In this document: in pieces, positions 14,272 through 64,000 of the stretch
Layout of the letters: each line of letters begins with the position of its first letter
Position numbering within the stretch: the first letter of the stretch is position 1
Assembly (NCBI GenBank): GCA_964016885.1
Contig: OZ024757.1
Span: forward strand, 6,262,001-6,326,000
Origin: Eledone cirrhosa
Lineage: Eukaryota
Reading direction: 5' to 3'
DNA length: 64,000 nucleotides
Notes under the pieces: generated by a model
What the model saw: only the letters and a program-made list of their open reading frames with translations
What the model was told of the DNA's origin: nothing
The model's database searches: none
Translations under genes and position numbers: made by a program

Positions 14272-17200
14272 ATGGAGGCTGCAGAAATAGTTAGTGTAGA
14301 AGACCAAATTATAAGTAGACAGTTACCCGAAGTAGTATATGACAGGGAGGATTTGGTGATTCCACTACAACAGACTATTAGGGAAAATAAATCTAAGGTA
14401 AAAGTGTTAACTGAAATCCCCTTGAAGAACGATATCACAGTACCATGCCAAATATTATATACACCTGTTCCTCCAGTAGTAAACACTGTAAAAGTTACTG
14501 TAGAAGACACTGTAGAATATTACCCTCTACCATTAAAATATATTGTACCCATAAAGGATGGTACTATGAGCTATATCCCACGTATATTAACACTAAAGTA
14601 CACACCACCAACTGGCTGTTGTTGTATGGTACACTGTCAATCAGTGGTCACTGATATCGATGGGTTTAACCAAAATGTGGTAATTGCCACATTACCATTT
14701 GACAATCAAATTCTGTTCTTCTCACCCTCTAGTGTTGCAATAAAAACTCTTGAAGTCGGCTTTCATAAAATTTCATATTATAAAGATAGTAGATTCCTAG
14801 GTTTTAAATTATTAGAAAAAAAAATATATATGGTAAATTGGATTGAAAAAACATATACTGAGCAATTTGAGGTGAAACATGAGCCGAGAAGTATAGCCAT
14901 AGGGCCAGACGATCGTGTTTTAGTAATATTTTATAATTTAACCGTTATAATCTGTTATGATCTGAATGGTCATAAATTATTTCAATTTCACCTCCATTCT
15001 AAGGACATTCCTGCTGACATCACCGTTTTCAGGAATTATTTTTATGTATTTCAAGGGCAGGTTATTTATAAGATCTCCTCAATAGGTGGCATCTCTCAAA
15101 AGGATATTGGGATAAACACTCAATATATTACATTTGACTTAAATAATATGTTTGTATCTGATGTTTCTGGTCAGATATATAGTTTTAAGACAAAAAAGTG
15201 TTGGCCAAAGATGTCTTATTATCAAAAGACCCAAACACCCTGTCTGAATGACAAAATTAATATAACAAGATATATGAGATTCTACCTATGTCACGATCTT
15301 CTGTATTAGTTGTATACATGGATCTGAAAGCTATACTATACACTTACAGTGGGACAGAATTGTGTAGAGGTAAGGAATTAATATTTAAGTCCAAACCATC
15401 TAGATTTTGCAGAATAGACTCCAGCAAATTTCTGGTTCTATTCAATAAAACTAGAACTATACAACATATACAACATATTACATGTCCTGAACTAAAAGAA
15501 GGTAATCTCTATTGTTTAGATAAGAATTACATTCAAATATGTCATGTAGTATTAGATAGGTTTATGGCTTTGACCACTTGTGGAATGAACGAGGTCCATA
15601 AATTAAAGATTGAGGAAGACAAGGTAGAATGTGAAAACCTAAAATCATTAGAACATGGTGATGTCAGTATAGCTACAACTCCAACTTATTTTGTTATTTT
15701 AGATAAGAAATATCGTAAATTAATATTTCATTCTAGTTTCGGTGAAGAAGAACTTTTCGAAACATATTTTGATTTTAACAGCCGTCCCAATCATATCTAC
15801 TCAGACACTTTTTACTTGTATATTATCTTCCCTACACTCTCTATTATGGCATGTTATGATATTTATGGAGAATATAAATGGAAATTAAAACTTCCGGTAG
15901 CTTCTCGCTTTTGTAATGGTATTTGTGAAGGAACTATATATCTATTTGACCATAACCTAGGGAGTATTCTTGTTTACAACTGTGAATCATCCATTTGTCA
16001 TTTAAAAAAGTTAAATCCTTATATCAGAAATCCAACGATACGACACAAAGAAAAGGATGATAATAAAATTGCAATTGCTGAAACATGTTATCTACCCAAC
16101 GGACAGTTGGTGGTGTCTGACATAAATAATTCTTGCTTATTATACATTTCTAAGAAAGAAGGAGAAGAAATAAAAGTGTTATCTACATTATATCTGCCAT
16201 CTGTAGCTACAGATATATGTAGATGGGGTTCTAGTCAATTGGCTGTCACATTACCCCTAGAGAAAGAATTAAGGCTTATTGGAAACCTATCAAAAACAGT
16301 TAGAATGATATCATTAAAGCACCCTTATGTACAGATATGGAAGTTTGGTGAGGGTAGAATTGTTGGTTATTGTGACAACAAACCAAACTATATAGACATT
16401 GTATCTGTTCAAAAACATAACCAGGGTGAAGTAATGTCTAGGGTCCCTATTCCATGTCAAATAAACTCATTAGCAATAGACAATGATACATTCAATATAG
16501 TTATGGTAGCTAAGAAAAAAATGTTTATGTACGAAACTATATCAAAAAAGGGTCAACGAGGTATTTTAAGTGGTCCCAGCTCTATTTCGGAGCCCAACTT
16601 TAAACCACTTTCTGATCTATATGGTGGATGTATTGATAACACTTGTCATTATCTGATAGACAAAGATGGTGTGTTGGCTATAAATAGGCATAACTCTGTG
16701 ATGGTAGATCTGGTGACAAGGAAACAGTCTAACATGTTTATTGACATGGTAGATGTATTTTCTAGAAACATCTGTGTCAGTGAAATGTTTTCTTCTACAT
16801 TATATCTGCAGGATCTGACAGTTTCTGATAAAGCTAAGGAATTGTTACCTCCTCCTTGTTTGGAAGACACAAGACCAGTGGGTGGTGGTGGTCATTATGG
16901 TGGGAAAGAGAAGAGTTTGGTTGTTGTTACTGAAAATAACCTGATTGCATTATATGACGACAATAACAACAACATTAAAATATTAACATTTGATGGTCAA
17001 ATTGTTGACTTTATCAAATTAAATAACAATCTCCCTAAACATATATGTCGTTGGGGGTCAAACACACTGGTCATTACCACTGGTACTGACAAGCTGTTAA
17101 CTTTAGAAGTGGAGTTTCCATTGTATTTGGTAAGTTATAAGACAGACCATAGCTATTATGGTATAGCTTCTTTGTTAGACAACCAACTAGTGTGTAGTAG

Positions 17201-18935
17201 TGTAGATAGAGGTAGAGATAGAGATAGACATAGATTGTTTGTCATTGATATTGATGAAATACATTCAACTGTGGATGTAAAGAAAGAAATAAACATACCT
17301 GAGTTCATCAATGTCGTAGAATATAGTTATGGTAGAGGTCCTCCCATCTCTGATATTGTAGTTAATGTTAAGAATGAGATTATATTTCACAATGGTAGAT
17401 ATATCACTTTCTTCAGATATAAAACTGGTTATTTACATTCACACAGACAATATTATGAAGACATACCACTAAACACCTGTATAACAACAGATGACAATTA
17501 TTTGTACATTTATGGACAGTGGAGATTATATAACTTCAATAATGACAGAGATTACCAGATTGTTTGTTTGTCACAGACTGGTAAATACAGGGAAATATTT
17601 TTAAATAAAAGACATTATAGACATAAGATATCTTTCACCAGTATTAACTGTAAAGGTCCAAGGTTTGTTGGATATGACTGGAGGAGAAGGTGTTTATATG
17701 TTGAAGGTTTATATGAACTTAATAGGGAAACATTCCCTGTTTGTCGTGTAAAAACAGACCAAAGCTCTGTTGAAATAAAAGATATGGACATCACTGATGA
17801 TGGACAAACAGTTGTCTATGAAATAACCAATTATGGTAATGTTAAAATATTTCAGAGAGATGGGGAACTGTTATGTCACAGAAATATTGAAACTTTAGTT
17901 GGTGGGGTCTGTTTTACAGAAGAAGGAGATTTTATTATGGTTACACTTCCTAATGAATATCAATTAATTCAACTAGAGAAGGAAGATTTGACAGAATATC
18001 ATGTTTGGTCCAGTTCTCTACCTTATGGTCGTATATCGAGGATAGAAGAAAATATTTACTTCTGTCGACATATCAACTTGACAGAATATCATAAGATAAA
18101 GATTGATGACAACAAACTGAATGTTCTGGAGCATGGGACATTACATCTGGATTGTCATCTGCCTCAAGCAAGATGTACTACTACTACTTCAGGTGAAATA
18201 ATTAACAATTTACTAGAGGTGAGACGTGGTAATTACAAGGCAGAGTGTATCTCAGGAAATGATGAAATATCAGTGAGATTTTTACCACATGTTATGAACA
18301 TGTCTTATCTTTCCTATCCCATGTATTCTGACATATCTAAATATACTGAGAGATGTCAGGTTGATGAGGAGGAATATTTTGAGGAATATGAGAGGGACAT
18401 GTTCAACTACAGTAAACTAATTATGTTACATGACAATGTGGCAGTGTTCATGTTGAGGAATATTATCACAGTAACAACAACAGAAGGTAAAATAATCCAT
18501 GGCAAAATATTACCAGAAACACCAATAGACATTTGCAGATGGTCAGATAATTGTTTTATTCTCCTTTACTATCATAAAATGGTGATTTACAGAGAAAATA
18601 TTTCTCACATTAAAAAGGTGAAACTTGAGAAATACTACAACCATATCTATAAAAAGAATCGCAACCAACTTGTGTGTACTTTTGATGGTGATGGTGATAT
18701 GTTTAAATATAACAGTGAGGTATATGGTGGTGGTGATGGTGGTGGTGGTATGTTTAAATATAACAGTGAGGTATATGGTGGTGGTGGTGGTATGTTTAAA
18801 TATAACAGTGAGGTATATGGTGGTGGTGGTGGTGGTATGTTTAAATATCACCCTGGGGACTCTCCTTATCTAGATATAGTTTGTATCTACAGTGGAACAG
18901 TGAAATACAGTGTTGAAGTGTCTGTTAGAGACGAG
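14272..18935 (+). pseudogene. Tandem beta-propeller (NHL/TolB-like) repeat protein, copy A, split by a 10-bp deletion into ORFs 14272-15309 and 15288->gap
   Basis: Near-identical to copy B. GAGTACCCTA is missing between 15264 and 15265. The second ORF stays open to the N gap. Confidence 0.75.
18699..18848 (+). repeat. In-frame coding tandem repeat (MFKYNSEVYGGGG.. x3 plus a partial unit) in copy A
   Basis: atgtttaaatataacagtgaggtatatggtggtggt is repeated; copy B has about 1.5 units at ~19700-19760. Confidence 0.9.
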
Positions 18936-19135
18936 NNNNNNNNNNNNNNNNNNNNNNNNNNNNNNNNNNNNNNNNNNNNNNNNNNNNNNNNNNNNNNNNN
19001 NNNNNNNNNNNNNNNNNNNNNNNNNNNNNNNNNNNNNNNNNNNNNNNNNNNNNNNNNNNNNNNNNNNNNNNNNNNNNNNNNNNNNNNNNNNNNNNNNNNN
19101 NNNNNNNNNNNNNNNNNNNNNNNNNNNNNNNNNNN
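18936..19135. other. Assembly gap (200 N)
   Basis: Run of N. The round length suggests a scaffolding placeholder of unknown true size. Confidence 0.99.
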
Positions 19136-22100
19136 AGATATGGTCTGTCATATATATTATATGATATTAGTTGTGGTGTTTCTAATGTCCTGACTAACTG
19201 TTCTTCTCTGTACCAACAGATAGAACTGTACCACCTCCACCCCCTCCTCCTCTCTGACTTGACAACAACAATGTCTTCACTTGATGTGACACCAACTGCT
19301 GAGACTCTCTCCTCCTCCACTACCTCCTCCTCTAACCTGTGTACCTCCTCCCTTAACCTGTCTTCCTCCTTCCTTAACCTGTCTTCCTCCTCCTCTAACC
19401 TGTCTACCTCCTCCTTTAACCTGTCTACCTCCTCCCTTAACCTGTCATGGACCTCCTTCATCTTCTCATTGTCCCTCCTCAACCTCTTCAACTCCTCCTC
19501 CACCCTCCTCCTCTCCCCCTCCACCCTCCTCCTCTCCCCCACCACCCTCTCCCTCTCCCTCACCACCCACTCCAACTCCCCCTTCACCCTCTCCAGCTCC
19601 GCCACCTTCTCCTCGTCTCTAACAGACACTTCAACACTGTATTTCACTGTTCCACTGTAGATACAAACTATATCTAGATAAGGAGAGTCCCCAGGGTTAT
19701 ATTTAAACACATCATCATCACCACCACCACCACATACCTTACTGTTATATATAAACATATCACCATCACCATCAAAAGCACACACAAGTTGGTAGCCATT
19801 CTTTTTATAGATACAGTTGTAATATTTCTCAAGATTCACCTTTTTAATGTGAGAAATATCTTCTCTGTAAATCACCATTTTATGATAGTAAAGGAGAATA
19901 AAACAATTATCTGACCATCTGCAAATGTCTATTGGTGTTTCTGGTAATATTTTGTCATGGATTATTTTACCTTCTGTTGTTGTTACTGTGATAATATTCC
20001 TCAACATGAACACTGCCACATTGTCATGTAACATAATTAGTTTACTGTAGTTGATGATGTCCCTCCTATATTCCTCCAAATATTCCCACTCATCAACCTG
20101 ACATCTCTCAGTATATTTAGATATGTCAGAATACATGGGATAGGAAAGATAAGACATGTTCATAACATGTGGTAAAAATCTCACTGACATTTCATCATTT
20201 CCTGAGATACACTCTGCCTTGTAATTACCACGTCTCACCTCTAGTAAATTGTTAATTATTTCACCTGAAGTAGTAGTAGTACATCTTGCTTGAGGCAGAT
20301 GACAATCCAGACGTAATGTCCCATGTTCCAGAACATTCAGTTTGTTGTCATCAATCTTTATCATATGATATTCTGTCAAGTTGATATGTCGACAGAAGTA
20401 AATATTTTCTTCTATCCTCGATATACGACCATAAGGTAGAGAACTGGACCAAACATGATGTTCTGTCAAATCTTCCTTCTCTAGTTGAATTAATTGATAT
20501 TCATCAGGAAGTGTAACCATAATAAAATCTCCTTCTTCTGTAAAACACACCCCACCAACTAAAGTTTCAATATTTCTGTGACATAACAGTTCCCCATCTC
20601 TCTGAAATATTTTAACATTACCATAATTGGTTATTTCATAGACAACTGTTTGTCCATCATCAGTGATGTCCATATCTTTTATTTCAACAGAGCTTTGGTC
20701 TGTTTTTACACGACAAACAGGGAATGTTTCCCTATTAAGTTCATATAAACCTTCAACATATAAACACCTTCTCCTCCAGTCATATCCAACAAACCTTGGA
20801 CCTTTACAGTTAATACTGGTGAAATATATGTCATGTCTATAATGTCTTTTATTTAAAAATATTTCCCTGTATTTACCAGTCTGTGACAAACAAACAATCT
20901 GGTAATCTCTGTAATCCAAGTTATATAATCTCCAGTGTCCATAAATGTACAAATAATTGTCATCTGTTGTTATACAGGTGTTTGGTGGTGTGGTATCATA
21001 ATATTGTCTGTGTGAATGTAAATAACCAGTTTTATATCTGAAGAAAGTGATATATCTACCACTGTGAAATATAATCTCATTCTTAACATTAACTACAATA
21101 TCAGAGATGGGAGGACTACCAAATCTATAGTCTACGACATTGATGAACTCAGGTATGTTTATTTCTTTCTTTACATCCACAGTTGAATGTATTTCATCAA
21201 TATCAATGACAAACAATCTATGTCTATCTCTATATCTATCTATATCTCTATCTCTCTCTACACTACTACACACTAGTTGGTTGTCTAACAAAGAAGCTAT
21301 ACCATAATACCTATGGTCTGTCTTATAACTTACCAAATACAATGGAAACTCCACTTCTAAAGTTAACAGCTTGTCAGTACCAGTGGTAATGACCAGTGTG
21401 TTTGACCCCCAACGACATATATGTTTAGGGAGATTGTTATTTAATTTGATAAAGTCAACAATTTGACCATCAAATGTTAATATTTTAATGTTGTTGTTAT
21501 TGGAGTCATATAATGCAATCAGGTTATTTTCAGTAACAACAACCAAACACTTCTCCCCCCCAACATAACCACCACGACCACCCACTGGTGTTGTGTCTAC
21601 CAAACAAGGAGGAGGTAACAATTCCTTAGCTTTATCAGAAACTGTCAGATCCTGCAGATATAATGTAGAAGAAAACATTTCACTGACACAGATGTTTCTA
21701 GAAAATACATCTACCATGTCAATAAACATGTTAGACTGTTTCCTTGTCACCAGATCTACCACCACAGAGTTATGCCTATTTATAGCCAACACACCATCTT
21801 TGTCTATCAGATAATGACAAGTGTTATCAATACATCCACCATATAGATCAGAAAGTGGTTTAAAGTTGGGCTCCGAAATAGGGCTGGGACCACTTAAAAT
21901 ACCTCGTTGACCCTTTTTTGATATAGTTTCGTACATAAACATTTTTTTCTTAGCCACCATAAATATATTTAATGTATCATTGTCTATTGCTAATGAGTTT
22001 ATTTGACATGGAATAGGGACCCTAGACATTACTTCACCCTGGTTATGTTTTTGAACAGATACAATGTCTATATAGTTTGGTTTGTTGTCACAATAACCAA

Positions 22101-24201
22101 CAATTCTACCCTCACCAAACTTCCGTATCTGTACATAAGGGTGCTTTAATGATATCATTCTAACTGTTTTTGATAGGTTTCCAATAAGCCTTAATTCTTT
22201 CTCTAGGGGTAATGTGACAGCCAATTGACTAGAACCCCATCTACATATATCTGTAGCTACAGATGGCAGATATAATGTAGATAACACTTTTATTTCTTCT
22301 CCTTCTTTCTTAGAAATGTATAATAAGCAAGAATTATTTATGTCAGACACCACCAACTGTCCGTTGGGTAGATAACATGTTTCAGCAATCGCAATTTTAT
22401 TATCATCCTTTTCTTTGTGTCGTATCGTTGGATTTCTGATATAAGGATTTAACTTTTTTAAATGACAAATGGATGATTCACAGTTGTAAACAAGAATACT
22501 CCCTAGGTTATGGTCAAATAGATATATACTTCCTTCACAAATACCATTAGAGAAGCGAGAAGCTACCGGAAGTTTTAATTTCCATTTATATTCTCCATAA
22601 ATATCATAACATGCCATAATAGAGAGTGTAGGGAAGATAACATACAAGTAAAAAGTGTCTGAGTAGATATGATTGGGACGGCTGTTAAAATCAAAATATG
22701 TTTCGAAAAGTTCTTCTTCACCTAAACTAGAATGAAATATTAATTTACGATATTTCTTATCTAAAATAACAAAATAAGTTGGAGTTGTAGCTATACTGAC
22801 ATCACCATGTTCTAATGATTTTATTTTTTCACATTTTACCTTGTCTTCCTCAATCTTTAATTTATGGACCTCATTCATTCCACAAGTGGTCAAAGCCATA
22901 AACCTATCTAATACTACATGACATATTTGAATGTAATTCTTATCTAAACAATAGAGATTACCTTCTTTTAGTTCAGGACATGTAATATGTTGTATATGTT
23001 GTATAGTTCTAGTTTTATTGAATAGAACCAGAAATTTGCTGGAGTCTATTCTGCAAAATCTAGATGGTTTGGACTTAAATATTAATTCCTTACCTCTACA
23101 CAATTCTGTCCCACTGTAAGTATATAGTATAGCTTTCAGATCCCTGTATACAACTAATACAGAAGATCGTGACATAGGTAGAATCTCATATATATTGTTA
23201 GGGTACTCTATATTAATTTTGTCATTCAAACAGGGTGTTTGGGTCTTTTGATAATAAGACATCTTTGGCCAAAACTTTTTTGTCTTAAAACAATATATCT
23301 GACCAGAAACATCAGATACAAACATATTATTTAAGTCAAATGTAATATATTGAGTGCTTATCCCAATATCCTTTTGAGAGATGCCACCTATTGAGGAGAT
23401 CTTATAAATAACCTGCCCTTGAAATACATAAAAATAATTCCTGAAAACGGTGATGTCAGCAGGAATGTCCTTAGAATGGAGGTGAAATTGAAATAATTTA
23501 CGACCATTCAGATCATAACAGATTATAACGGTTAAATTATAAAATATTACTAAAACACGATCGTCTGGCCCTATGGCTATACTTCTCGGCTCATGTTTCA
23601 CCTCAAATTGCTCAGTATATGTTTTTTCAATCCAATTTACCATATATATTTTTTTTTCTAATAATTTAAAACCTAGGAATCTACTATCTTTATAATATGA
23701 AATTTTATGAAAGCCGACTTCAAGAGTTTTTATTGCAACACTAGAGGGTGAGAAGAACAGAATTTGATTGTCAAATGGTAATGTGGCAATTACCACATTT
23801 TGGTTAAACCTATCAATATCAGTGACCAGTGATTTACAGTGTACCATACGACAACAGCCAGTTGGTGGTGTGTACTTTAGTGTTAATACACGTGGGATAT
23901 AGCTCATAGTACCATCCTTTAAGGGTACAATATATTTTAATGGTAGAGAGTAATATTCTACAGGGTCTTCTACAGTAACTTTTACAGTGTCTACTACTGG
24001 AGGAACAGGTGTATATAATATTTGGTATGGTACTGTGATATCTTTCTCAAAGGGGATTTCAGTTAACACTTTTACCTTAGATTTATTTTCCCTAATAGTC
24101 TGTTGTAGTGGAATCACCAAATCCTCCCTGTCATATACTACTTGGGGTAACTGTCTACTTAGAATTTGGTCTTCTACACTAACTATTTCTGCAGCCTCCA
24201 T
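19136..24201 (-). CDS. Single-exon ~1690+ aa protein with about six tandem NHL/TolB-like beta-propeller modules and a coiled-coil insert; 3' end lost in the gap (copy B)
   Basis: 5 kb open frame in AT-rich DNA. Recurring blade motifs every ~230-300 aa: LVTDIDRFNQNVVIATLP, KPSRFCRIDSSKFLVLF, VATDICRWGSSQLAVTLP, LPKHICRWGSNTLVITT, LVGGVCFTEEGDFIMVTLP, TPIDICRWSDNCFILLY; also CYLPNGQLVVSDINN. The fold is assigned from motif resemblance to molluscan TRIM C-terminal propellers, not from a search. Confidence 0.85.
19310..19615 (-). repeat. Purine-rich 21-bp coding repeats forming a heptad coiled coil (EEVDRLK / ERRRVEG)
   Basis: ttaacctgtc(t)..ctcctcc units at ~19330-19460 and ccaccctcctcctctcccc units at ~19500-19545. 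Confidence 0.85.
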
Positions 24202-27200
24202 TGTTTGTCTCTACTTCTACAACTGGTTATATATATGTATATATATGTGTGTGTGTATATGTGTTATGTGTATGAATGTAATTCCAAACACCTTCACAAT
24301 TTCAAAATTTTCAGATAAATTTACCAAATCTAAAATGAAATATAGGAAAAAGAAATATTGATTAGTTTTGTGAAAATATTAGTTTTTCAAATAAATGGAT
24401 TAATAAGAAAACATCATTTTCTCTAAATATATTAAATCCAGCTGTTTATTTGGCAAATATGATCAACAATGAGAATAATCACTAAAAATAAATGTTAACA
24501 AAGAAAAATATGATATTACATGTATTGTATGAAGAAAGTCCTAGTGAGAAAATGTAGTTACACAGAATATAGGTATTGCCAATGAATATATATAAGAAGT
24601 ATTGCCAACTTGGAGCACCCCCTGGTGCTCAAGTGGTCACACATGCCATTCAAACAAAGAAGGTGGCTTGGAAATAAGTCCTTCTTGCACTTGCAGGACA
24701 AGCAGTCATGAAAAGTCACAGCAGAGACGACAGTCAGGTGTCTAAAATTAAGACATGGGAAATATTTGGGGTTAAGCTGGAATCCAACTTCAGATCAACA
24801 AATATTTATGGGCTCATGCACAGCCAAGTTGGAAGAGGTATCAAGACTGGTGAGTGTAAGATCAGTCGGCTGATTTTGCAGACGTCATCGTACTACTTAA
24901 CTCAAGAGAAGGTGATCTCTGACATGCATTTGACAGATTTGATGCCAAGTGCTGCACGGCAGGAATGAAAATCAGTGATGCAAAGACTGAGACACTCATC
25001 CTCTCAAGGAAGCCTGTTTAGTGCACTCCACAAGTGAATGGAGTTACACCAAATGCTTCAGCATTCGGTCATTAGAAGAAAGGAGGTATGTGTGAAAGCT
25101 GAACTCGATATCTTCAATTTGTTTAGGTGCCAACCCTTAACTATCGTCATGAATCTTGTTTAATGATCGAAAGAATATGATTGCATATACTATTGGCTGA
25201 AATGGGGTTCCTTTGAAGGGTCTTTGGAGCAATGTTACTCAATAGAATGAGTAACTCGGAGATCAGAGAGTCACTCCAGGTAGAGCCGCTACTTCTCCGA
25301 ATTGAGAGATCTCAACTCTGATACTACAGACATGAGGTTAGAATGTCTCAGGAAAGAATTGTTGAAAAGATTTTATGAGCAAAGCCAACCATCAGGAGTA
25401 CCTGGGTAGACCCTGAGCAAGATGGTTGGATAACATCCATGAGCTTGGCTGGTTTCACTTGGGCATTCAGCTGGATCAGTTGGAGACAGTTGCTTCTGAC
25501 AGGACCCATTGGAAGGAGTACTTGAGAAATATTCCCCCACTGCCCTCCTCCCAGGAATATATCAGCAAAGAAGAATATATATATTATAAACCCCATTTGT
25601 AAGCCAAGGCAGCTAATCAACACAAGTTTAGGTGGTGTGGCTTTGAAATTCTCATGAGTATAAAATATATTTATGAAGTTTTAGTATTTTAATCTTTAAA
25701 ATGTTTTAAGTGTCTTTTAGAATATAGTTTTTGTTACACAACTCCATTACATAATGCTTTTTTACCATTTCATCTGTTTTCTTCTTTGCCAACTTATTCC
25801 TGATAGGGTCAGGGTGTAGAGTCCTCAAACTCTCCTTCCAGTGGGTCCTGTCAGAAGCAACCATCTCCAACTGATCCAGCTGCATGCCCAAGCACGTCTT
25901 GTTCGGGATCCACCCCTGTGTCTTTTGCTGGTTGTTTTACCCATAACATCTGTCCAGCGATTCTTTCCTGAGACATTCTAACCTCATGCCCAGAGTATTG
26001 GCGCTGTCATCTCTCAATTCAGAGAAGTAGTTGCTCTACCTGCAATGACTGATCTCTAAGCTATGCACTTTATCGAGTAACGTTATTCAAAAGACCCTTC
26101 GGAAGTATCCCATTCTAGCCCCATGCCTATAGTATCGGAGCTGTGATCTCTCAATTCAGAGAAGTAGCAGCTCTACTCGGAGTGACTTTCTGATCTCTGA
26201 GCTACACACTCTATCGAGTAACAATACTACAAAGACGCTTCGCAGGAACCTCATTCACGATTATATTTTTGGGGTCATTATCCAAGATTCATGACCCTAG
26301 GTAAGGGTTGGCATGAATGTCGAATTGAAACAGTGAGTTTGGCTTTTACTCCTTCCTACCTTCTGATTAATGAAGCTGGCATATTACTGTACCAGTCTTT
26401 GTAATTCTTACACTTAATTTAGCCTCTTGCCTACCATCACTCGTGAACATGGCCCCAAGATACTTGAACTTCTCTACCTGCTTCAGTGGAACTCCATTCA
26501 CATGTAGAGTACACTGCACTGGCTTCCATGAGAGGACAAGTGTCTCAGTTTTCACAGTACTGATTTTCATTCCAGCCATGCAGCACTCGGCAACAAACCT
26601 ATCAAGTGCAAGTCAAATATCATCTTCTGTCGAGTTAAATAACACCATGTCATCATCAAATTCCAGCCAAGTGATTTTACAGCCGCCAGACATGATACCA
26701 CTTCCAACCCAGCTGCGTATATCAATCCTGTTCATGTAAATAACAAACAGGAGAGTTGACAGTATACACCCTTGGTGGAGTCCAACTCCCATATTGAATG
26801 GTTTCTATTTAACACCATTTATCCCAACATAGATATTCAGGCATTGATATAGAGACATCAGGGCAGCAAGAAGTTGACTATCAATCACATACTCCTGTAC
26901 AGCCTACCACAGCAGGTGGCCAAGGAACGTAGTCATATGCCTTTTCAAAGTCAACAAAATATATGAGTATATACAGTATATATAATATTGTATGGACCTA
27001 ATAAAATAGTACATTTAACTTACGTATTTTATAATCACTTTCGTCGATTTCATTGGTTTTGTATTAGAAACTGGTAATTGGGAATCTGAAATAATGGAAT
27101 ATTATTGATAAAAACATTTTTATTTTTACATAAATGTAAGTAAAGTCTCAAAAATAAGTTTTAAATAACAAAAAAAGAAATTATGAATATAAAACTGATA

Positions 27201-27310
27201 TTATCATCATCACCATCATACATGTGTATTTCTGTGCTGGATAGGTTGGATGGATTGTTACAGACCAACCCAATATTTAATAAAAGCTACTGTCTTCTTA
27301 CAGACCGAAT

Positions 27311-27366
<56 letters not shown>

Positions 27367-55000: not shown

Positions 55001-58000
55001 TGCTTTTTGGGAGAGTTAAGCTCCAGCATGTTAAAAGTTGTTGATGATGATGGTGACAGAATGATATAGATAAAAACTTAAATAGAATGTTATCAATGTT
55101 GTTTATTGTGAAACAAATCTGTATCTTGACTTAGAAGAAAACATTGATTAGGTAAGGTCAAGTGTTCTCTTCATATTGATATATTAGAGAAGACACACAG
55201 CACTTATGTACATTCATTCTACCACACACCCACACAGAGTAACTTACACTCACACACATATACTAACACACCACAAATAATATGTTTATGGCTGAGTATT
55301 CCACAACCAGGCTTGTGTTTTTGATAATTCCATAACAGAATCATCATGTCAATATATATGACAGAGTAGATCATCATCACTGGTTTACATCCATTATTCC
55401 ACACTAGCATGGGTTAGACTTGTTGTCTTGTTGTGGGCAAGTCTGGTGACCATGTCTTGTTTGTACACAACTGATTTTAGCTTATTCTACAGCTGGATGT
55501 CCTTCCTAATGCCAACCTCATTTACAGTGTAGACTGGGTGCTTTTTGTCATGACACCTACATGACCATTTTACAGAGTGGACTGGGTGCTTTGTTGTGAC
55601 ACCTACACAACCACTTTACAGTGTGGACTGGGTGCTTTTTGTCATGACACCTACATGACCACTTTACAGTGAGGACTGGGTGCTTTTTGTCATTAAACCT
55701 ACACAACCACTTTACAGAGTAGACTGTGTTTTTTTTGTGACACCTACATGACTACTTTACAGTGCGGACTGGGTGCTTTTTGTTGTGACACCTACATAAC
55801 CACTTTATAGAGTGGACTGGGTGCTTTTTGTTGTGTCACCAACGCAACCACTTTACAGAGTGGACTGGGTGCCTTTTGTCATGATACCAACACAACCATT
55901 TTATAGAATGGACTGTGTGCTTTTTGTTGCGAAACCTACTCATCCACATTACAGAGTGGACTGGGTGCTTTTGTTGTAATTTGTGACATTCATTCTACCA
56001 CACACCCACACAGAGTAACTTACACTCACACACATATACTAACACACCAGAAATAATATGTTTATGGCTGAGTATTCCACAACTAGGCATGTGTTTATTG
56101 TAGTTCCATGACAGAATCATCATGTCAATATATATGACAGAGTAGATCATCATCACTGGTTTACATCCATTATTCCAAACTAGCGTGGGTTAGACTTGTA
56201 GTCCTGTTGTGGGCAAGTCTGGTGACCATGTCTTGTTCGTACAAAACTGATTTTAGCTTATTCTACAACTGGATGTCCTTCCTAACGCCAACCTCATTTA
56301 CAGTGTGGACTGGGTGCTTTTTGCATGACACATACACAAAAACTTTACAGAGTAGACTGGGTACTTTTGTTGTGACAACTACACAACCACTTTACGGTGT
56401 AGCCTTGGTGCTTTTTGCATGACACCTACACAACCACTTTACAGTGTAGACTGGCTGCTTTGTTGTGACACCTACACAAACACTTCAGGGAGTGGACTGG
56501 GTACTTTTTGTCATGACACCTACATGACCACTTTACAGTGAGTACTGGGTGCTTTTTGTCATGACATGGACACAACCACATTACAATGTAGACTGGGTTC
56601 TTTTTGTCATGACACCTACACAACCATTTTACAGTGTAGACTGGGAGCTTTGTTGTGACACCTACACAAACACTTCAGGGAGTGGACTGGGTGCTTTTTG
56701 TCATGACATCGACACAACCACATTACAGTGTAGACTGAGTGCTTTTTGTCATGACACCTACACAACCACTTTACAGTGTGGACTGGGTGCTTTTTGCATG
56801 TCACCTACATGACCACTTTACAGTGTAGACTGAGTGCTTTTTGTCATGACACCTACACTTCCACTTTACAGAGTGGACTGGGTGCGTTTTGTCATGATAC
56901 AAACACGACCACTTTACAGAGTGGACTGGGTGATTTTGTTGCGAAACCTACTCATCCACTTTACAGTGTGGAATGGGTGTTTTTGTCATGACACCTACAC
57001 AACCACTTTATAGAGTAGACTGGGTGTTTTTGTCGTGACGCCTACATGACCACTTTACAGAGTGGACTGGGTGCTTTTTGTCATGACACCTACACAACCA
57101 CTTCACAGAGTGGACTGGGTGCTTTTTTGTGACACCTACATGACCACTTTACAGTGTGGACTGGGTGCTTTTGTTGTGACACCTACATGACCACTTTACA
57201 ATGTGGACTGGGTGCTTTTTCTCAGGATATCTATATGACTACTTTACAGTGTGGACTGGGTGCTTTTTGTCATGACACCTACACATCCACTTTACAGTGT
57301 GGACTGGGTGCTTTGTTGTGACACCTATATGACTACTTTACAGAGTGGACAGAGTGCTTTTTGTCATGACACCTACACATCCACTTATACAACCACATTA
57401 CAGTGTAGACTGGGTGCTTTTTGTCATGACACCTACATGACCACTTTACAGTGAGTACTGGGTGCTTTTTGTCATGACATCGACACAATCACATTACAGT
57501 GTAGACTGAGTGCTTTTTGTCATGACACCTACACAATCACATTACAATGTAGACTGGGTTCTTTTTGTCATGACACCTACACAACCACTTAACAGAGTGG
57601 ACTGGGTGCTTTTTCTCAGAACATCTATATGACTACTTTACAGTGTGGACTGGGTGCTTTTTGTCATGACACCTACATGACCACTTTACAATGTAGACTG
57701 AGTGCTTTTTGTCATGACAGCTATACAACCACTTTACAGTGTGGACTGGCTGCTTTGTTGTGACACCTATATGACTACTTTACAGAGTGGACTGAGTACT
57801 TTTTGTCATGACACCTACACATCCATTTATACAACCACATTACAGTGTAGACTGGGTGCTTTTTGTCATGACACCTATACAACTACTTTACAGTGTGAAC
57901 TGGGTACTTTTTGTTGTGACACCTACATGACTACTTTACAGTGTGGACTGGTTACTCTCCGTCATGACACCTACACAACCACTTTACAGTGTAGACTGGG

Positions 58001-61000
58001 TACTTTTTGTTGTGACACCTACATGACCACTTTACATTGTGAACTGTGTGCTTTTTGTCATGATACCTACACAACCACTTTACAGTGTAGACTGGGTGCT
58101 TTGTTGTGACACCTACACAAACACTTCAGGGAGTGGACTGGGTACTTTTTATCATGACACCTACATGACCACTTTACAGTGAGTACTGGGTGCTTTTTGT
58201 CATGACATCGACACAACCACATTACAATGTAGACTGGGTTCTTTTTGTCATGACACCTACACAACCACTTTACAGTGTCGACTGGGTGCTTTGTTGTGAC
58301 ACCTACACAAACACTTCAGGGAGTGGACTGGGTGCTTTTTGTCATGACATCGACACAACCACATTACAGTGTAGACTGAGTGCTTTTTGTCATGACACCT
58401 ACACTTCCACTTTACAGAGTGGACTGGGTGCGTTTTGTCATGATACAAACACGATCACTTTACAGAGTGGACTGGGTGATTTTGTTGCGAAACCTACTCA
58501 TCCACTTTACTGTGTGGAATGGGTGTTTTTGTCATGACACCTACACAACCACTTTATAGAGTAGACTGGGTGTTTTTGTCGTGACGCCTACATGACCACT
58601 TTACAGAGTGGACTGGGTGCTTTTTGTCATGACACCTACACAACCACTTAACAGAGTGGACTGGGTGCTTTTTTGTGACACCTACATGACTACTTTACAG
58701 TGTGGACTGGGTGCTTTTGTTGTGACACCTACATGACTACTTTACAGTGTGGACTGGTTGCTTTTTGTCATGACACCTACACATCCACTTTACAGTGTGG
58801 ACTGGGTGCTTTGTTGTGACACCTATATGACTACTTTACAGAGTGGACAGAGTGCTTTTTGTCATGACACCTACACGTCCACTTATACAACCATATTACA
58901 GTGTAGACTGGGTGCTTTTTGTCATGACACCTACATGACCACTTTACAGTGAGTACTGGGTGCTTTTTGTCATGACATCGACACAACCACATTACAGTGT
59001 AGACTGAGTGCTTTTTGTCATGACACCTACACAATCACATTACAATGTAGACTGGGTTCTTTTTGTCATGACACCTACACAACCACTTAACAGAGTGGAC
59101 TGTGTGCTTTTTCTCAGAACATCTATATGACTACTTTACAGTGTGGACTGGGTGCTTTTTGTCATGACACCTAAATGACCACTTTACAGTGTGGACTAGG
59201 TGCTTTTTGTCATGACACCTACACAACCTCATTACAATGTAGACTGAGTGCTTTTTGTCATGACACCTATGCAACCACTTTACAGTGTGGACTGGGTGCT
59301 TTTGGTTCTGACACCTACACAACCACTTTACAGAGTGGACTGGGTCCTTTTTGTTGTGACACCTACACAACCACTTTACAGTGTCGACTGGGTGCTTTTT
59401 GTCACGACACCTACATGACCACTTTACTGTGTGGACTGGGTGCTTTTTGTTATGTCACCTACACAACCACTTTACAGTGAGGACTGGGTGCTTTTTGAAA
59501 TGACACCTACATGACCACTTTAGAGTGTGGACTGATTGCTTTTTGTCATGACACCTACATGACCACTGTACAGAGTGGACTGGGTGCTTTGTTGTTACAG
59601 CTACATGACTACTTTACAGTGTGGACTGGGTGCTTTTTGTCATGACACCTACACAACCACTTTACAGAGTGGACTGGGTGCATTTTGTCACGACACCTAC
59701 ATGACCACTTTACAGTGTGGACTGGGTGCTTTGTTGTGACAGCTTCATGACTACTTTACAGTGTGGACTGGGTGCTTTTTGTCATGACACCTACAAAAAC
59801 CACTTTACAGAGTGGACTGGGTGCTTTTTGTCACGACACCTACTAGACCACTTTACAGGGTGGACTGGGTGCTATTTGTCATGACACCTACATGACCACT
59901 TTACAGAGTAGACTGGGTGCTTTTTTTGTGACACGTACATGACCACTTTACAGTGTGGACTGGGTGCTTTTTATCATGACACATACACAACCACTTTACA
60001 GGGTGGACTGGGTGCTTTTTGTCATGACACCTACATAACCACTTCACAGTGTGGACTGGGTGCTTTTTGTAGTGACATCGACATGACCTCTTCACAGTGT
60101 GGACTAGGTGCTTTTTGTAGTGACACCTACATGACCACTTTACAGTGTGGACTGTGTGATTTGTTGTGACAGCTACATGACCACCTTACAGTGTAGACTG
60201 GGTGCTTTTTGTCATGACACCTACATGACCACTTTACAGTGTGGACTAGGTGCTTTTTGTCATGACACCTACACAACCCCATTACAATGTAGACTGAGTG
60301 CTTTTTGTCATGACACCTACACAACCACTTTACAGTGTGGACTGGGTGCTTTTGGTTCTGACACCTACACAACCACTTTACAGAGTGGACTGGGTCCTTT
60401 TTGTTGTGACACCTACACAACCACTTTACAGTGTCGACTGGGTGCTTTTTGTTGTGACACCTACACAACCACTTTACAGGGTGGACTGGGTGCATTTTGT
60501 TGTGATACCTACATGACCACTTTACAGTGTGGACTGTATATTTTTGTTGTGACACCTACATGACCACTTCACAGTGTGGACTGGGTGCTTTTTGTAGTGA
60601 CATCTACATGAACACTTCACAGTGTGGACTGGGTGCTTTTGTCATGACACCTACATGACTAATTTACTGTGTGGACTGGTTGCTTTTTGGGACAGTTAAG
60701 CTCCAGCTAGCATGTTAAAAGTTGTTGATGATGATGATGACAGATTGATATAGACAAAAACTTAAATAGAATGTTATCAATGTTGTTTATTGTGAAACAA
60801 AACTGTATTTTGACTTTGAACAAAACATTGATTAGGTAAGGTCAAATGTTCTCTTCATACTGATATATTAGAGAAGACACACAGCACGTATGTACATTCA
60901 TTCTACCACACACCCACACAGAGTAACTTACACTCACACACATATACTAACACACCATAAATAATATGTTTATGGCTGAGTATTCCACAACCAGGCATGT

Positions 61001-64000
61001 GTTTATTGTAATTCCATGACAGAATCATCATGTCAATATATATGACAGAGTAGATCATCATCACTGGTTTACATCCATTATTCCACACTAGCATGGGTTA
61101 GACTTGTTGTCTTGTTGTGGGCAAGTCAGGTGACCATGTCTTGTTCGTACAAAACTGATTTTAGCTTATTCTACAGCTGGATGTCCTTCCTAATGCCACC
61201 CTCATTTACAGTGTAGACTGGGTGCTTTTTGTCATGACACCTACATGACCATTTTACAGAGTGGACTGGGTGCTTTGTTGTGACACCTACATGACCACAT
61301 TACAGTGTGGACCGGGTGCTTTTTGTCATGACACCTACATGACCACTTTACAGTGTGGACTGGGTGCTTTTTGTCATGACACCTACACAACCACTTTACA
61401 GAGTAGACTGTGTTTTTTTTGTGACACCTACATGACTACTTTACAGTGTGGACTGGGTGCTTTTTGTTGTGACACCTACACAACCACTTTATAGAGTGGA
61501 CTGGGTGCTTTTTGTTGTGACACCTACACAACCACTTTGCAATAATGACTGGGTGCTTTTTGTCATGACACCAAAATATCAACTTTACAGAGTGGACTGG
61601 GTTCTTTTTGTTGTGTCACCCACGCAACAACTTTACAGAGTGGACTGGGTGCCTTTTGACATGATACCAACACAATCATTTTACAGAATGGACTGGGTGC
61701 TTTTTGTTGCGAAACCTACTCATCCACTTTACAGAGTGGACTGGGTGCTTTTGTTGTAATTTGTGACATTCATTCTACCACACACCCACACAGGGTAACT
61801 TACACTCACACACATATACTAACACACCACAAATAATATGTTTATGGCTGAGTATTCCACAACTAGGCATGTGTTTATTGTAATTCCATGACAGAATCAT
61901 CATGTCAATATATATGACAGGGTAGATCATCATCACTGGTTTACATCCATTATTCCATGGGTTAGACTTGTTGTCTTGTTGTGGGCAAGTCAGGTGACCA
62001 TGTCTTGTTCGTACAAAACTGATTTTAGCTTATTCTACAACTGGATGTCCTTCCTAACGCCAACCTCATTTACAGGGTGGACTGGGTGCTTTTTGCATGA
62101 CACATACACAAAAACTTTACAGAGTAGACTGGGTACTTTTGTTGTGACACCTACACAACCACTTTACAGTGTAGCTTGGTGCATTTTGCATGACACCTAC
62201 ACAACCACTTTACAGTGTGGACTGGCTGCTTTGTTGTGACACCTACACAACCACTTTACAGTGTAGACTGGGTGCTTTGTTGTGACACCTACACAAACAC
62301 TTCAGGGAGTGGACTGGGTACTTTTTGTCATGACACCTACATGACCACTTTACAGTGAGTACTGGGTGCTTTTTGTCATGACATCGACACAACCACATTA
62401 CAATGTAGACTGGGTTCTTTTTGTCATGACACCTACACAACCACTTTACAGTGTGGACTGGGTGCTTTTTGCATGTCACCTACATGACCACTTTACAGTG
62501 TAGACTGAGTGCTTTTTGTCATGACACCTACACTTCCACTTTACAGAGTGGACTGGGTGCGTTTTGTCATGATACAAACACGACCACTTTACAGAGTGGA
62601 CTGGGTGATTTTGTTGCGAAACCTACTCATCCACTTTAAAGTGTGGAATGGGTGTTTTTGTCATGACACCTACACAACCACTTTATAGAGTAGACTGGGT
62701 GTTTTTGTCGTGACGCCTATATGACCACTTTACAGAGTGGACTGGGTGTTTTTTGTCATGACACCTACACAACCACTTAACAGAGTGGACTGGGTGCTTT
62801 TTTGTGACACCTACATGACCACTTTACAGTGTGGTCTGGGTGCTTTTGTTGTGACACCTACATGACCACTTTACAATGTGGACTGGGTGCTTTTTCTCAG
62901 GATATCTATATGACTACTTTACAGTGTGGACTGGGTGCTTTTTGTCATGACACCTACACATCCACTTTACAGTGTGGACTGGGTGCTTTGTTGTGACACC
63001 TATATGACTACTTTACAGAGTGGACAGAGTGCTTTTTGTCATGACACCTACACATCCACTTATACAACCACATTACAGTGTAGACTGGGTGCTTTTTGTC
63101 ATGACACCTACATGACCACTTTACAGTGAGTACTGGGTGCTTTTTGTCATGACATCGACACAACCACATTACAGTGTAGACTGAGTGCTTTTTGTCATGA
63201 CACCTACACAATCACATTACAATGTAGACTGGGTTCTTTTTGTCATGACACCTACACAACCACTTAACAGAGTGGACTGGGTGCTTTTTCTCAGAACATC
63301 TATATGACTACTTTACAGTGTGGACTGGGTGCTTTTTGTCATGACACCTACATGACCACTTTACAATGTAGACTGAGTGCTTTTTGTCATGACAACTACA
63401 CAACCACTTTACAGTGTGGACTGGGTGCTTTGTTGTGACACCTATATGACTACTTTACAGAGTGGACTGAGTACTTTTTGTCATGACACCTACACATCCA
63501 CTTATACAACCACATTACAGTGGAGACTGGGTGCTTTTTGTCATGACACCTACATGACCACTTTACAATGAGGACTAGATGCTTTTTGTCATGACACCTT
63601 CACAACCACTTTACAGTGTGGACTGGGTCCTTTTTGTCATGACACCTACACAACCACTTTACAGTGTAGACTGGGTGCTTTGTTGTGACACCTACACAAA
63701 CACTTCAGGGAGTGGACTGGGTACATTTTGTCATGACACCTACATGACCACTTTACAGTGAGTACTGGGTGCTTTTTGTCATGACATCGACACAACTACA
63801 TTACAGTGTAGACTGAGTGCTTTTTGTCATGACACCTACACAATCACATTACAATGTAGACTGGGTTCTTTTTGTCATGACACCTACACAACCACTTAAC
63901 AGAGTGGACTGGGTGCTTTTTCTCAGAACATCTATATGACTACTTTACAGAGTGGACTGAGTACTTTTTGTCATGACACCTACACATCCACTTATACAAC
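46033..64000. repeat. 48-bp satellite (tttacagtgtggactgggtgctttttgtcatgacacctacatgaccac) with higher-order structure, running off the right edge
   Basis: Hundreds of diverged monomers. Recurrent non-monomer blocks start at ~46970, 47615, 49590, 53745, 55010, 55975, 60690 and 61755. Confidence 0.97.

Follow-up and report, generated by a model that had tools for sequence, protein, structure and literature searches.

The locus: a giant open reading frame that ends in an assembly gap

The window analysed here is a stretch of 64,000 nucleotides from the octopod Eledone cirrhosa (GCA_964016885.1, OZ024757.1:6,262,001-6,326,000, forward strand; coordinates below are window positions). On its minus strand lies copy B, a giant open reading frame (ORF) that we read as a member of a duplicated octopod gene family encoding a predicted cytosolic chain of NHL-type beta-propellers (Table 1). 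The ORF starts with an ATG at 24201 and continues without a stop for 1,688 codons until it runs into a gap of 200 N at 19135, which bears out the uninterrupted frame of about 5 kb described in the original prediction, made from the letters of this DNA alone. Complete sister copies are about 75 residues longer (L017: 1,781 amino acids (aa)).

Pfam and pattern scans of the copy B protein revealed neither a RING nor a B-box, and no stretch resembling a signal peptide or a membrane segment was detected (maximum 19-residue hydropathy 1.42), exactly as had been noticed at first reading. Pfam reports a single NHL stretch (PF01436) at 17.4 bits, under the gathering cut-off of 20 bits (module 3 alone scores 14.3 bits), and otherwise coiled-coil noise. 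The blade motif that was originally said to recur six times at spacings of about 230-300 aa matches only once as written (residue 649), with DICRW or HICRW found three times and TLP three times; degenerate forms of this second-blade motif, read by eye, do occur six times, near residues 124, 379, 649, 925, 1215 and 1423, with spacings of 208-290. BLASTP detects no internal repeat in the protein, and the repetition becomes visible at the profile level only.

A predicted chain of NHL-type propellers

The modules share about 20% identity with each other. Profile comparisons link modules 3 and 6 (E 2e-9), 4 and 6 (4e-7), 3 and 4 (3e-5), 1 and 3 (9e-5), 2 and 3 (3e-4), 2 and 4 (6e-4), and 4 and 5 (6e-4), while global alignments of the pairs 1-3, 1-6 and 5-3 failed, local alignments of 5-6 and 1-6 were not significant, and module 2 gave the same E value of 0.003 against reversed module 6 as in the forward direction. 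The one propeller of molluscan TRIM-NHL and TRIM-like proteins is hit by the profile of every module, from 1 to 6, and by none of the reversed profiles, a test that is partly circular for modules 3-6, which formed the collecting query, but not for modules 1 and 2 (best E 6e-7 with a reversed control of 0.49, and 1e-3 with a reversed control of 1.1, respectively). Sequence searches of the PDB likewise return NHL domains, and a search of the Atlas, to be taken as a lead only, gave a best value of 0.87 to molluscan NHL clusters.

A structure model was calculated for residues 587-1781 of the intact, 94% identical sister L017 from an alignment of 46 sequences. Its mean per-residue confidence (pLDDT) is 68 and its global score (pTM) is 0.45, so that the arrangement of the modules relative to each other is not readable from it. 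The modelled part comprises three full propellers and one partial one, and two more modules come from profiles only: modules 3-6 are predicted to be propellers from the model and modules 1 and 2 from sequence profiles, a single-sequence fold of residues 1-867 (pLDDT 31) not having been used as evidence. Modelled module 4 is a six-bladed NHL propeller that superimposes on the NHL domain of TRIM3 with Z 23.2, a root-mean-square deviation (rmsd) of 2.9 and 248 aligned residues, and the NHL domains of TRIM3, Brat, TRIM71 and TRIM2 occupy the top 15 rows of its fold search (Z 22-23). In module 6, six blades are modelled with a long coiled coil between blades 3 and 4, an insert that is absent from the C2 copies. 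Of the "about six" propellers proposed originally, five are full-length modules and the remaining one, module 5, is short and incomplete; in the modelled part, the modules came out as propellers, in line with the original prediction.

A multi-copy family of octopods

Word-based protein searches yielded 55 matches among 8,000 candidates, 56 among 2,007 and 64 among 7,999, all labelled as Octopus vulgaris, O. bimaculoides, O. sinensis or Argonauta hians, with no functional name for this region in any of them; one 29-Mb contig of O. vulgaris holds 29 of the 55 matches of the first search. When 1.84 billion representatives were searched exhaustively with a profile, 56 matches were returned. The best 29 consist of 27 named octopod proteins and two without organism, and among the 27 weaker ones are TRIM-like proteins with one propeller from cuttlefish, mussels and Dreissena as well as three WD40 proteins and one DUF5122 protein (Pfam scan of 32 of the 56).

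In a tree of 41 near-full-length members (FastTree, midpoint root), species-specific bursts are apparent, and the clade of the window stands on a long branch (0.78). This clade is devoid of an N-terminal helical domain of about 75 aa present in other members, the profile of which gave a best E of 0.14 to TRIM-like proteins, no significant match in the PDB and nothing in the Atlas; the copy B protein also has no N-terminal coiled coil ahead of the propellers. No B-box was found in the scanned relatives, and no RING in 20 of 21. The exception, P0056 from O. vulgaris (953 aa), joins ankyrin repeats and a RING to pieces of the propeller family and is probably a fused annotation, or else a real ligase fusion; P0030 and P0081 are fused annotations that join the family to C2H2 zinc fingers. 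P0072, P0117 and P0118 (the Octopus LOC106882419 group) represent a slow-evolving member on a large chromosome that is a candidate for the ancestral form. It shares 30% identity with the copy B protein, and no close orthologue was found in the Eledone genome by a search whose stringent first step may overlook matches.

Within the 3.0-Gb Eledone genome, a 177-aa probe gave at least 32 matches among 45 candidates: 18 young copies at 93-100% identity, an older paralogue (58%) and 13 fragments that are degenerate. The young copies lie on C18, C2, C25 and C27 and on five small contigs, and since they have introns and flanks in common, duplication occurred at the DNA level. Five of the 16 other young copies fetched are intact to the terminal stop of the family (L017, L021, L022, L024 and L025), and the others are frameshifted, interrupted or cut by gaps, although some breaks in homopolymers could be assembly errors and the copies on small contigs (5 of 18) could be haplotypes. 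Copy number, broken copies, clustering on contigs and bursts in the tree together give the picture of multi-copy birth-and-death evolution.

Comparison with known systems

How does this family relate to known multi-domain proteins? Like TRIM-NHL proteins (TRIM2, TRIM3, TRIM71/LIN-41, Brat and Mei-P26), the octopod protein appears to be cytosolic and to have, in module 4, an NHL propeller of six blades (about 250 residues align at Z 22-23 with an rmsd of about 3). It differs from them in having neither RING nor B-box and about six propellers instead of a single C-terminal one, in an identity of 9-16%, and in its hypervariable top face (see below), which is conserved in TRIM-NHL proteins. The nearest non-octopod sequence relatives are molluscan TRIM-like proteins in which a B-box or RING and a coiled coil precede the NHL domain (Sepia pharaonis CAE1315789.1, Mytilus VDI39367.1 and Dreissena XP_052256959.1; E 2e-5 to 1e-4), but these retain zinc-binding domains, have one propeller and are 410-660 aa long. 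Members of the same family are unannotated Octopus and Argonauta proteins (LOC106873529, LOC106868082, LOC118768466, LOC106882419, Ahia01_001420400 and others), with 30-47% identity end to end over the propeller chain; they possess the extra helical domain, which the clade of the window has lost while gaining the coiled-coil insert. As the six-module layout is common to these proteins, the module duplications must be older than the sampled octopod species, and the in-exon duplication proposed originally would concern an old layout.

Chains of several propellers are also formed by the YWTD domains of LRP6, megalin and ROS1 and the WD40 domains of DDB1 and IFT-A. These fill the Foldseek list of the whole model, which shows only that the four-module chain has several propellers; TM-scores to it are 0.13-0.19 and rmsd values 17-43. 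LRP6, megalin and ROS1 are extracellular with EGF linkers, and DDB1 and IFT-A are seven-bladed; the copy B protein contains neither EGF linkers nor a signal peptide or membrane segment. Over its full length it matches no described family, in keeping with the architecture having gone unrecognised at first reading, and the proposal of a lineage-restricted, cytosolic, TRIM-derived chain of NHL-type propellers has survived testing.

Transcription and splicing

The family is transcribed and spliced, as a check for transcripts suggested in the original prediction established. In sequencing run X4, read depth is 11,000-47,000 in 15 of the 16 bins of the ORF (3,189 in the bin with repeats) against 19-61 in the bins of the first intron, and a joint between 24329 and 27024 with GT-AG ends is covered at a depth of 7,079 in X4 and is not seen in X1. 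Read evidence in the window reaches 28600 on the upstream side of the gene. Family genes consist of two 5' untranslated exons and one giant coding exon, so that "single-exon" is correct for the coding sequence but not for the gene, which has the spliced 62-nt exon (27085-27024) and another exon further upstream. The in-frame stop ahead of the ATG leaves no room for an upstream coding exon in that frame. A 12-codon upstream ORF has its ATG in the 62-nt exon, in another frame, and crosses the junction of exons 2 and 3 (27024-27085, 24322-24329).

The next exon upstream, derived from a loose read end, matches the genome exactly at a single place, which lies 22 kb 5' of the equivalent exon in L017; it was found neither in the window nor in the 20 kb beyond. 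A multi-copy unit on C27 matches the first exon of L017, some 6 kb of the sequence preceding that exon and portions of intron 1 at 88-99% identity, and roughly 22 kb further downstream this unit has an exon encoding ankyrin repeats (L057:8099-7746); the spliced RNA has the letter of C18 rather than that of the C27 unit. This looks like capture of promoter and first exon between the propeller family and an ankyrin-repeat family, to which we assign no direction.

Fast-changing top faces of modules 4 and 6

In NHL domains, ligands bind at the top face (PMC4015489). Using the definition given there, we assigned loops to the top (b-c and d-a) or the bottom from predicted strands, masked four simple-repeat loops and frameshifted tails, and counted changes in six modules among nine young copies, with the mutation spectrum of the copies' own intron as the neutral expectation. 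Modules 1-3 gave 72 non-synonymous and 25 synonymous changes, corresponding to a ratio (omega) near 1, and no excess of amino-acid changes was seen in modules 1, 2, 3 and 5. Module 4 stood out with 50 non-synonymous and 6 synonymous changes (omega 2.8, p 0.006), as did the first half of module 6 with 28 and 1 (omega about 9, p 0.003). The excess in module 4 lies on the loops assigned to its top face, which have 49 non-synonymous and 3 synonymous changes, 5.7 and 1.1 times the intron-based expectation, respectively, and 36 and 1 in the four least-broken copies alone, whereas the core of the same module has 2 and 3, with non-synonymous change at 0.11 times expectation. Accordingly, 29 of 75 top positions, 1 of 45 bottom positions and 1 of 128 strand positions of module 4 vary among the young copies, against 5 of 65 top and 5 of 53 bottom positions in module 3 as a control. 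For the top loops of module 6 the excess is weaker (22 non-synonymous and 2 synonymous changes, p 0.047). A codon-model test rejects omega = 1 for module 4 (twice the log-likelihood difference (2dL) 8.6, best value near 3) and the first half of module 6 (2dL 10.7, best value 5-10) and not for modules 2, 3 and 5; mosaicism of the copies may inflate this test, and the count-based one needs no tree.

The same faces vary in the separately expanded Octopus and Argonauta paralogues, where entropy is 2.05 at the top and 0.65 at the bottom of module 4, 1.63 and 0.97 in module 6, and does not differ between top and bottom in modules 3 and 5; p-values for this comparison are optimistic because neither columns nor sequences are independent. 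Positive selection on a surface of the ligand-binding type is clear for module 4 and weak for module 6, subject to the caveat of recombination. We read copy B as a member of a transcribed, duplicated octopod family whose predicted cytosolic propeller chain acts as a variable ligand sensor in an arms race between host and parasite, a reading to which we give slightly better than even chances. The "sensor or scaffold" of the original prediction is thereby narrowed: modules 4 and 6 have the fast-changing top faces, and the remaining modules are scaffold-like. Truncation by the gap, the coiled coil of module 6, the inverted sister copy (14272-18935), the multi-copy family and the fast-changing faces had not figured in that prediction.

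The variable top loops of modules 4 and 6 come in up to 12 lengths in Octopus and Argonauta and contain 9-10% Tyr and 10-11% Arg. An opponent from within the genome could be suspected behind such a surface, the chain being an RNA-binding TRIM-NHL derivative that recognizes RNA or protein of transposons or other selfish elements: the nearest solved folds are RNA-binding NHL domains, the loops are rich in Arg and Tyr, and LINE, Penelope-like and Helitron sequences abound in the flanks. Acidic and basic residues, however, are equally frequent in these loops (17-18% each, a statement about composition and not electrostatics), unlike the electropositive top of TRIM-NHL domains described in the accessible portion of PMC4015489, and we consider an internal opponent unlikely.

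Weighing the arms-race reading

Several points speak against a host-parasite sensor encoded by copy B. The top and bottom faces derive from predicted strands instead of coordinates. In module 6, 15 of 59 top and 3 of 25 bottom positions vary among the young copies, which is not a significant difference (p 0.25). Not all members evolve fast, as shown by the slow Octopus member, which two species share at 94% identity with an even spread of differences. The transcript evidence stems from one run of one study, X4, which carries no RNA label and whose RNA nature follows from the splice joint and the contrast between exon and intron. Copy B itself may be silent, because at four window-private sites in the read table the RNA mostly has the other letter (29,809 of 31,274 reads, 21,228 of 22,587, 2,175 of 2,175 and 9,817 of 15,297) and the first exon is found only upstream of another copy; at one non-private site, the RNA has the letter common to the window and L013. 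Moreover, an omega near 1 in modules 1-3 implies that many copies may be decaying, and the copies are mosaic, with 144 of 253 site pairs failing the four-gamete test. The last two points, together with the breaks in most young copies, the microsatellite-like nature of several loops and the possibility that the copies on small unplaced contigs are haplotypes, could mean that there is no adaptive diversification at all and that slippage and gene conversion in simple-sequence loops of a decaying segmental duplication mimic selection. Yet the counts exclude the masked microsatellite loops, the top of module 4 accumulates synonymous change at the intron rate while non-synonymous change is several-fold higher and the core is conserved, and the Octopus paralogues vary on the same faces, all of which renders pure decay improbable.

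A six-bladed-propeller enzyme with a fixed substrate, or a structural scaffold, would explain why the top faces of modules 3 and 5 are conserved, and in a wide fold search for module 4 a six-bladed enzyme indeed ties with the NHL domains (EupfF, Z 23.0; phytase, 21.4; PAL, 21.0). Sequence profiles, on the other hand, favour TRIM-NHL domains, and the active site of such an enzyme would be expected on the top face, the least conserved part of modules 4 and 6; we regard this explanation as highly improbable. Finally, fast evolution might reflect reproductive conflict or self-recognition in the germline or between gametes rather than infection. Bursts of copies and selection on a binding face are typical of reproductive genes too, X4, the single run that resembles RNA, shows high depth, and the germline is a site of action of TRIM-NHL proteins, Mei-P26 for example, according to the literature. 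Recognition at the gamete surface is hard to reconcile with a protein without signal peptide or membrane segment, and overall the reproductive alternative appears a little less likely than an opponent from within the genome.

Other features of the window and of related loci

Copies A and B lie tail to tail across the gap as part of an inverted duplication of about 12 kb. Long GGT/TGT simple-repeat tracts follow directly 3' of the stop in C18-type copies (L013, L016, L017 and L020) and are the probable cause of the gap. At the edge of the inverted duplication there is a 21-bp minisatellite of 64 copies (30912-32237) that is also part of the ankyrin unit of C27 and of the sequence preceding other copies. 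Elsewhere in the window, an ORF for a LINE-type endonuclease and reverse transcriptase (1-2214, minus) runs past the left edge, and a 48-bp satellite array of more than 330 copies (46035-63984) extends up to the window's end.

On C2 (201.81-201.99 Mb; L021-L024, L040-L044), four tandem gene copies that are more than 99% identical lie 54-58 kb apart, and the one unit examined contains a Helitron Rep/helicase ORF with a UCH peptidase domain (L042:1969-6567). A Helitron as the general carrier of the gene was rejected, as no such ORF was seen in the fetched flanks of C18-type copies. In L020 (6829-10000; C27:17.49 Mb), an in-exon unit of 1,042 nt, which corresponds roughly to residues 137-486, occurs in at least four repeats that are out of frame, so that tandem duplication at the scale of modules is still ongoing in the family.

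Table 1. Features of copy B, its surroundings and related loci (window positions unless stated otherwise)
Feature	Position	Strand	Remarks
Copy B coding sequence	19136..24201	-	1,688 codons, open to the gap; about 75 C-terminal residues and stop missing; complete sister L017
N-terminal 83 residues	23953..24201	-	without the ~75-residue helical domain of Octopus, Argonauta and the older paralogue L029
Module 1, putative six-bladed NHL-type propeller	23266..23952	-	profiles only, no confident model
Module 2, putative propeller	22462..23220	-	profiles only, no confident model; weakest sequence support
Module 3, five blades in the model plus a sixth of low confidence; best conserved of the modules	21628..22410	-	model; Pfam 17.4 bits
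Module 4, predicted six-bladed NHL propeller, hypervariable top face	20737..21552	-	fold match to TRIM3 NHL
Module 4, variable loops	near residues 872-886, 976-996, 1021-1032, 1069-1074, 1089-1099, 1124-1126, 1143		
Module 5, short (~190 aa), 3-4 predicted blades, conserved	20137..20700	-	model (low confidence) and profile
Module 6, predicted blades 1-3, variable top loops	19624..20049	-	model; profile match to module 3 (E 2e-9)
Predicted Glu/Arg/Lys-rich coiled coil, 21-bp repeat, in top-face loop between module 6 blades 3 and 4	19312..19623	-	
Module 6, predicted blade 4 and start of blade 5	19138..19311	-	model; cut by gap
Assembly gap, 200 N	18936..19135	.	between 3' ends of copies A and B; true length not given by N count
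5' untranslated part of giant exon, 128 nt	24202..24329	-	in-frame stop three codons before ATG; AG acceptor, pyrimidine tract
Intron, 2,694 nt, GT-AG	24330..27023	-	skipped in X4, not in X1
Upstream exon, 62 nt	27024..27085	-	spliced reads
Copy A, inverted sister copy, 97.9% identical	14272..18935	+	frameshifted by 10-base deletion near 15262; cut by gap
Left arm of inverted duplication	6325..18935	+	matches 19612-30914 at 92-97.5%
Upstream sequence common with first intron of L017	30912..38202	-	likeness ends ~9 kb short of L017 first exon
First-exon likeness	L035:1629-8516 and L033-L034 (C18:5.77-5.80 Mb) vs L053-L062, L069-L070 (C27:13-15 Mb)		

Proposed mechanism and significance

The host-parasite reading would work as follows. 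In a molluscan TRIM-NHL gene, the part coding for the propeller would have been multiplied inside a single exon, at a time when the octopods sampled had not yet diverged, and the RING/B-box region would have been lost; having several propellers and neither RING nor B-box, the product is TRIM-derived but not a TRIM. Modules 1, 2, 3 and 5 may provide a conserved scaffold or contact host partners that do not change, and modules 4 and 6 would use their top faces to bind changing foreign molecules, most likely of parasites or viruses. New faces would arise by gene duplication, selected point changes, changes in the repeat length of loops and exchange between copies. Since no catalytic or ligase domain is present, the protein might act by sequestering its target or by recruiting a partner in trans, and the helical domain lost in the clade of the window may have had a role in signalling to a partner. 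In logic, this resembles the SPRY loops of TRIM5-alpha, plant NLR proteins and the sea-urchin Transformer clusters, which are likewise clustered multi-copy families with selection on a binding surface; the folds are unrelated, and immune roles, established for those three systems, are proposed for the octopod family.

More broadly, and at slightly less than even chances, octopods may have diversified intracellular receptors of their own: a TRIM-derived chain of six propellers in which hypervariable, Tyr- and Arg-rich faces on modules 4 and 6 sit on an invariant scaffold. Each lineage would re-expand this system and shuffle faces between copies, and in Eledone it would have been rewired through a promoter and first exon in common with an ankyrin-repeat family. 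Chains of propellers as such are already known (LRP, DDB1), but a cytosolic NHL chain with two diversifying faces was not found in the open-access literature searched, nor, supplements aside, was a description of the family. "NHL" is absent from the main texts of PMC4199593 and PMC9795677, the supplements of which might list these loci, and the octopod genome expansions discussed in the accessible portion of PMC9795677 are those of protocadherins, C2H2 zinc fingers and G protein-coupled receptors. Octopus assemblies contain dozens of family members without a Pfam label, which is why domain-based surveys miss them. If our reading is correct, the family would represent a candidate variable pattern-recognition system for cephalopods with the exact loops named, in which the binding domain of a TRIM-NHL protein has turned into a multi-domain receptor that diversifies in only two of its six repeats.

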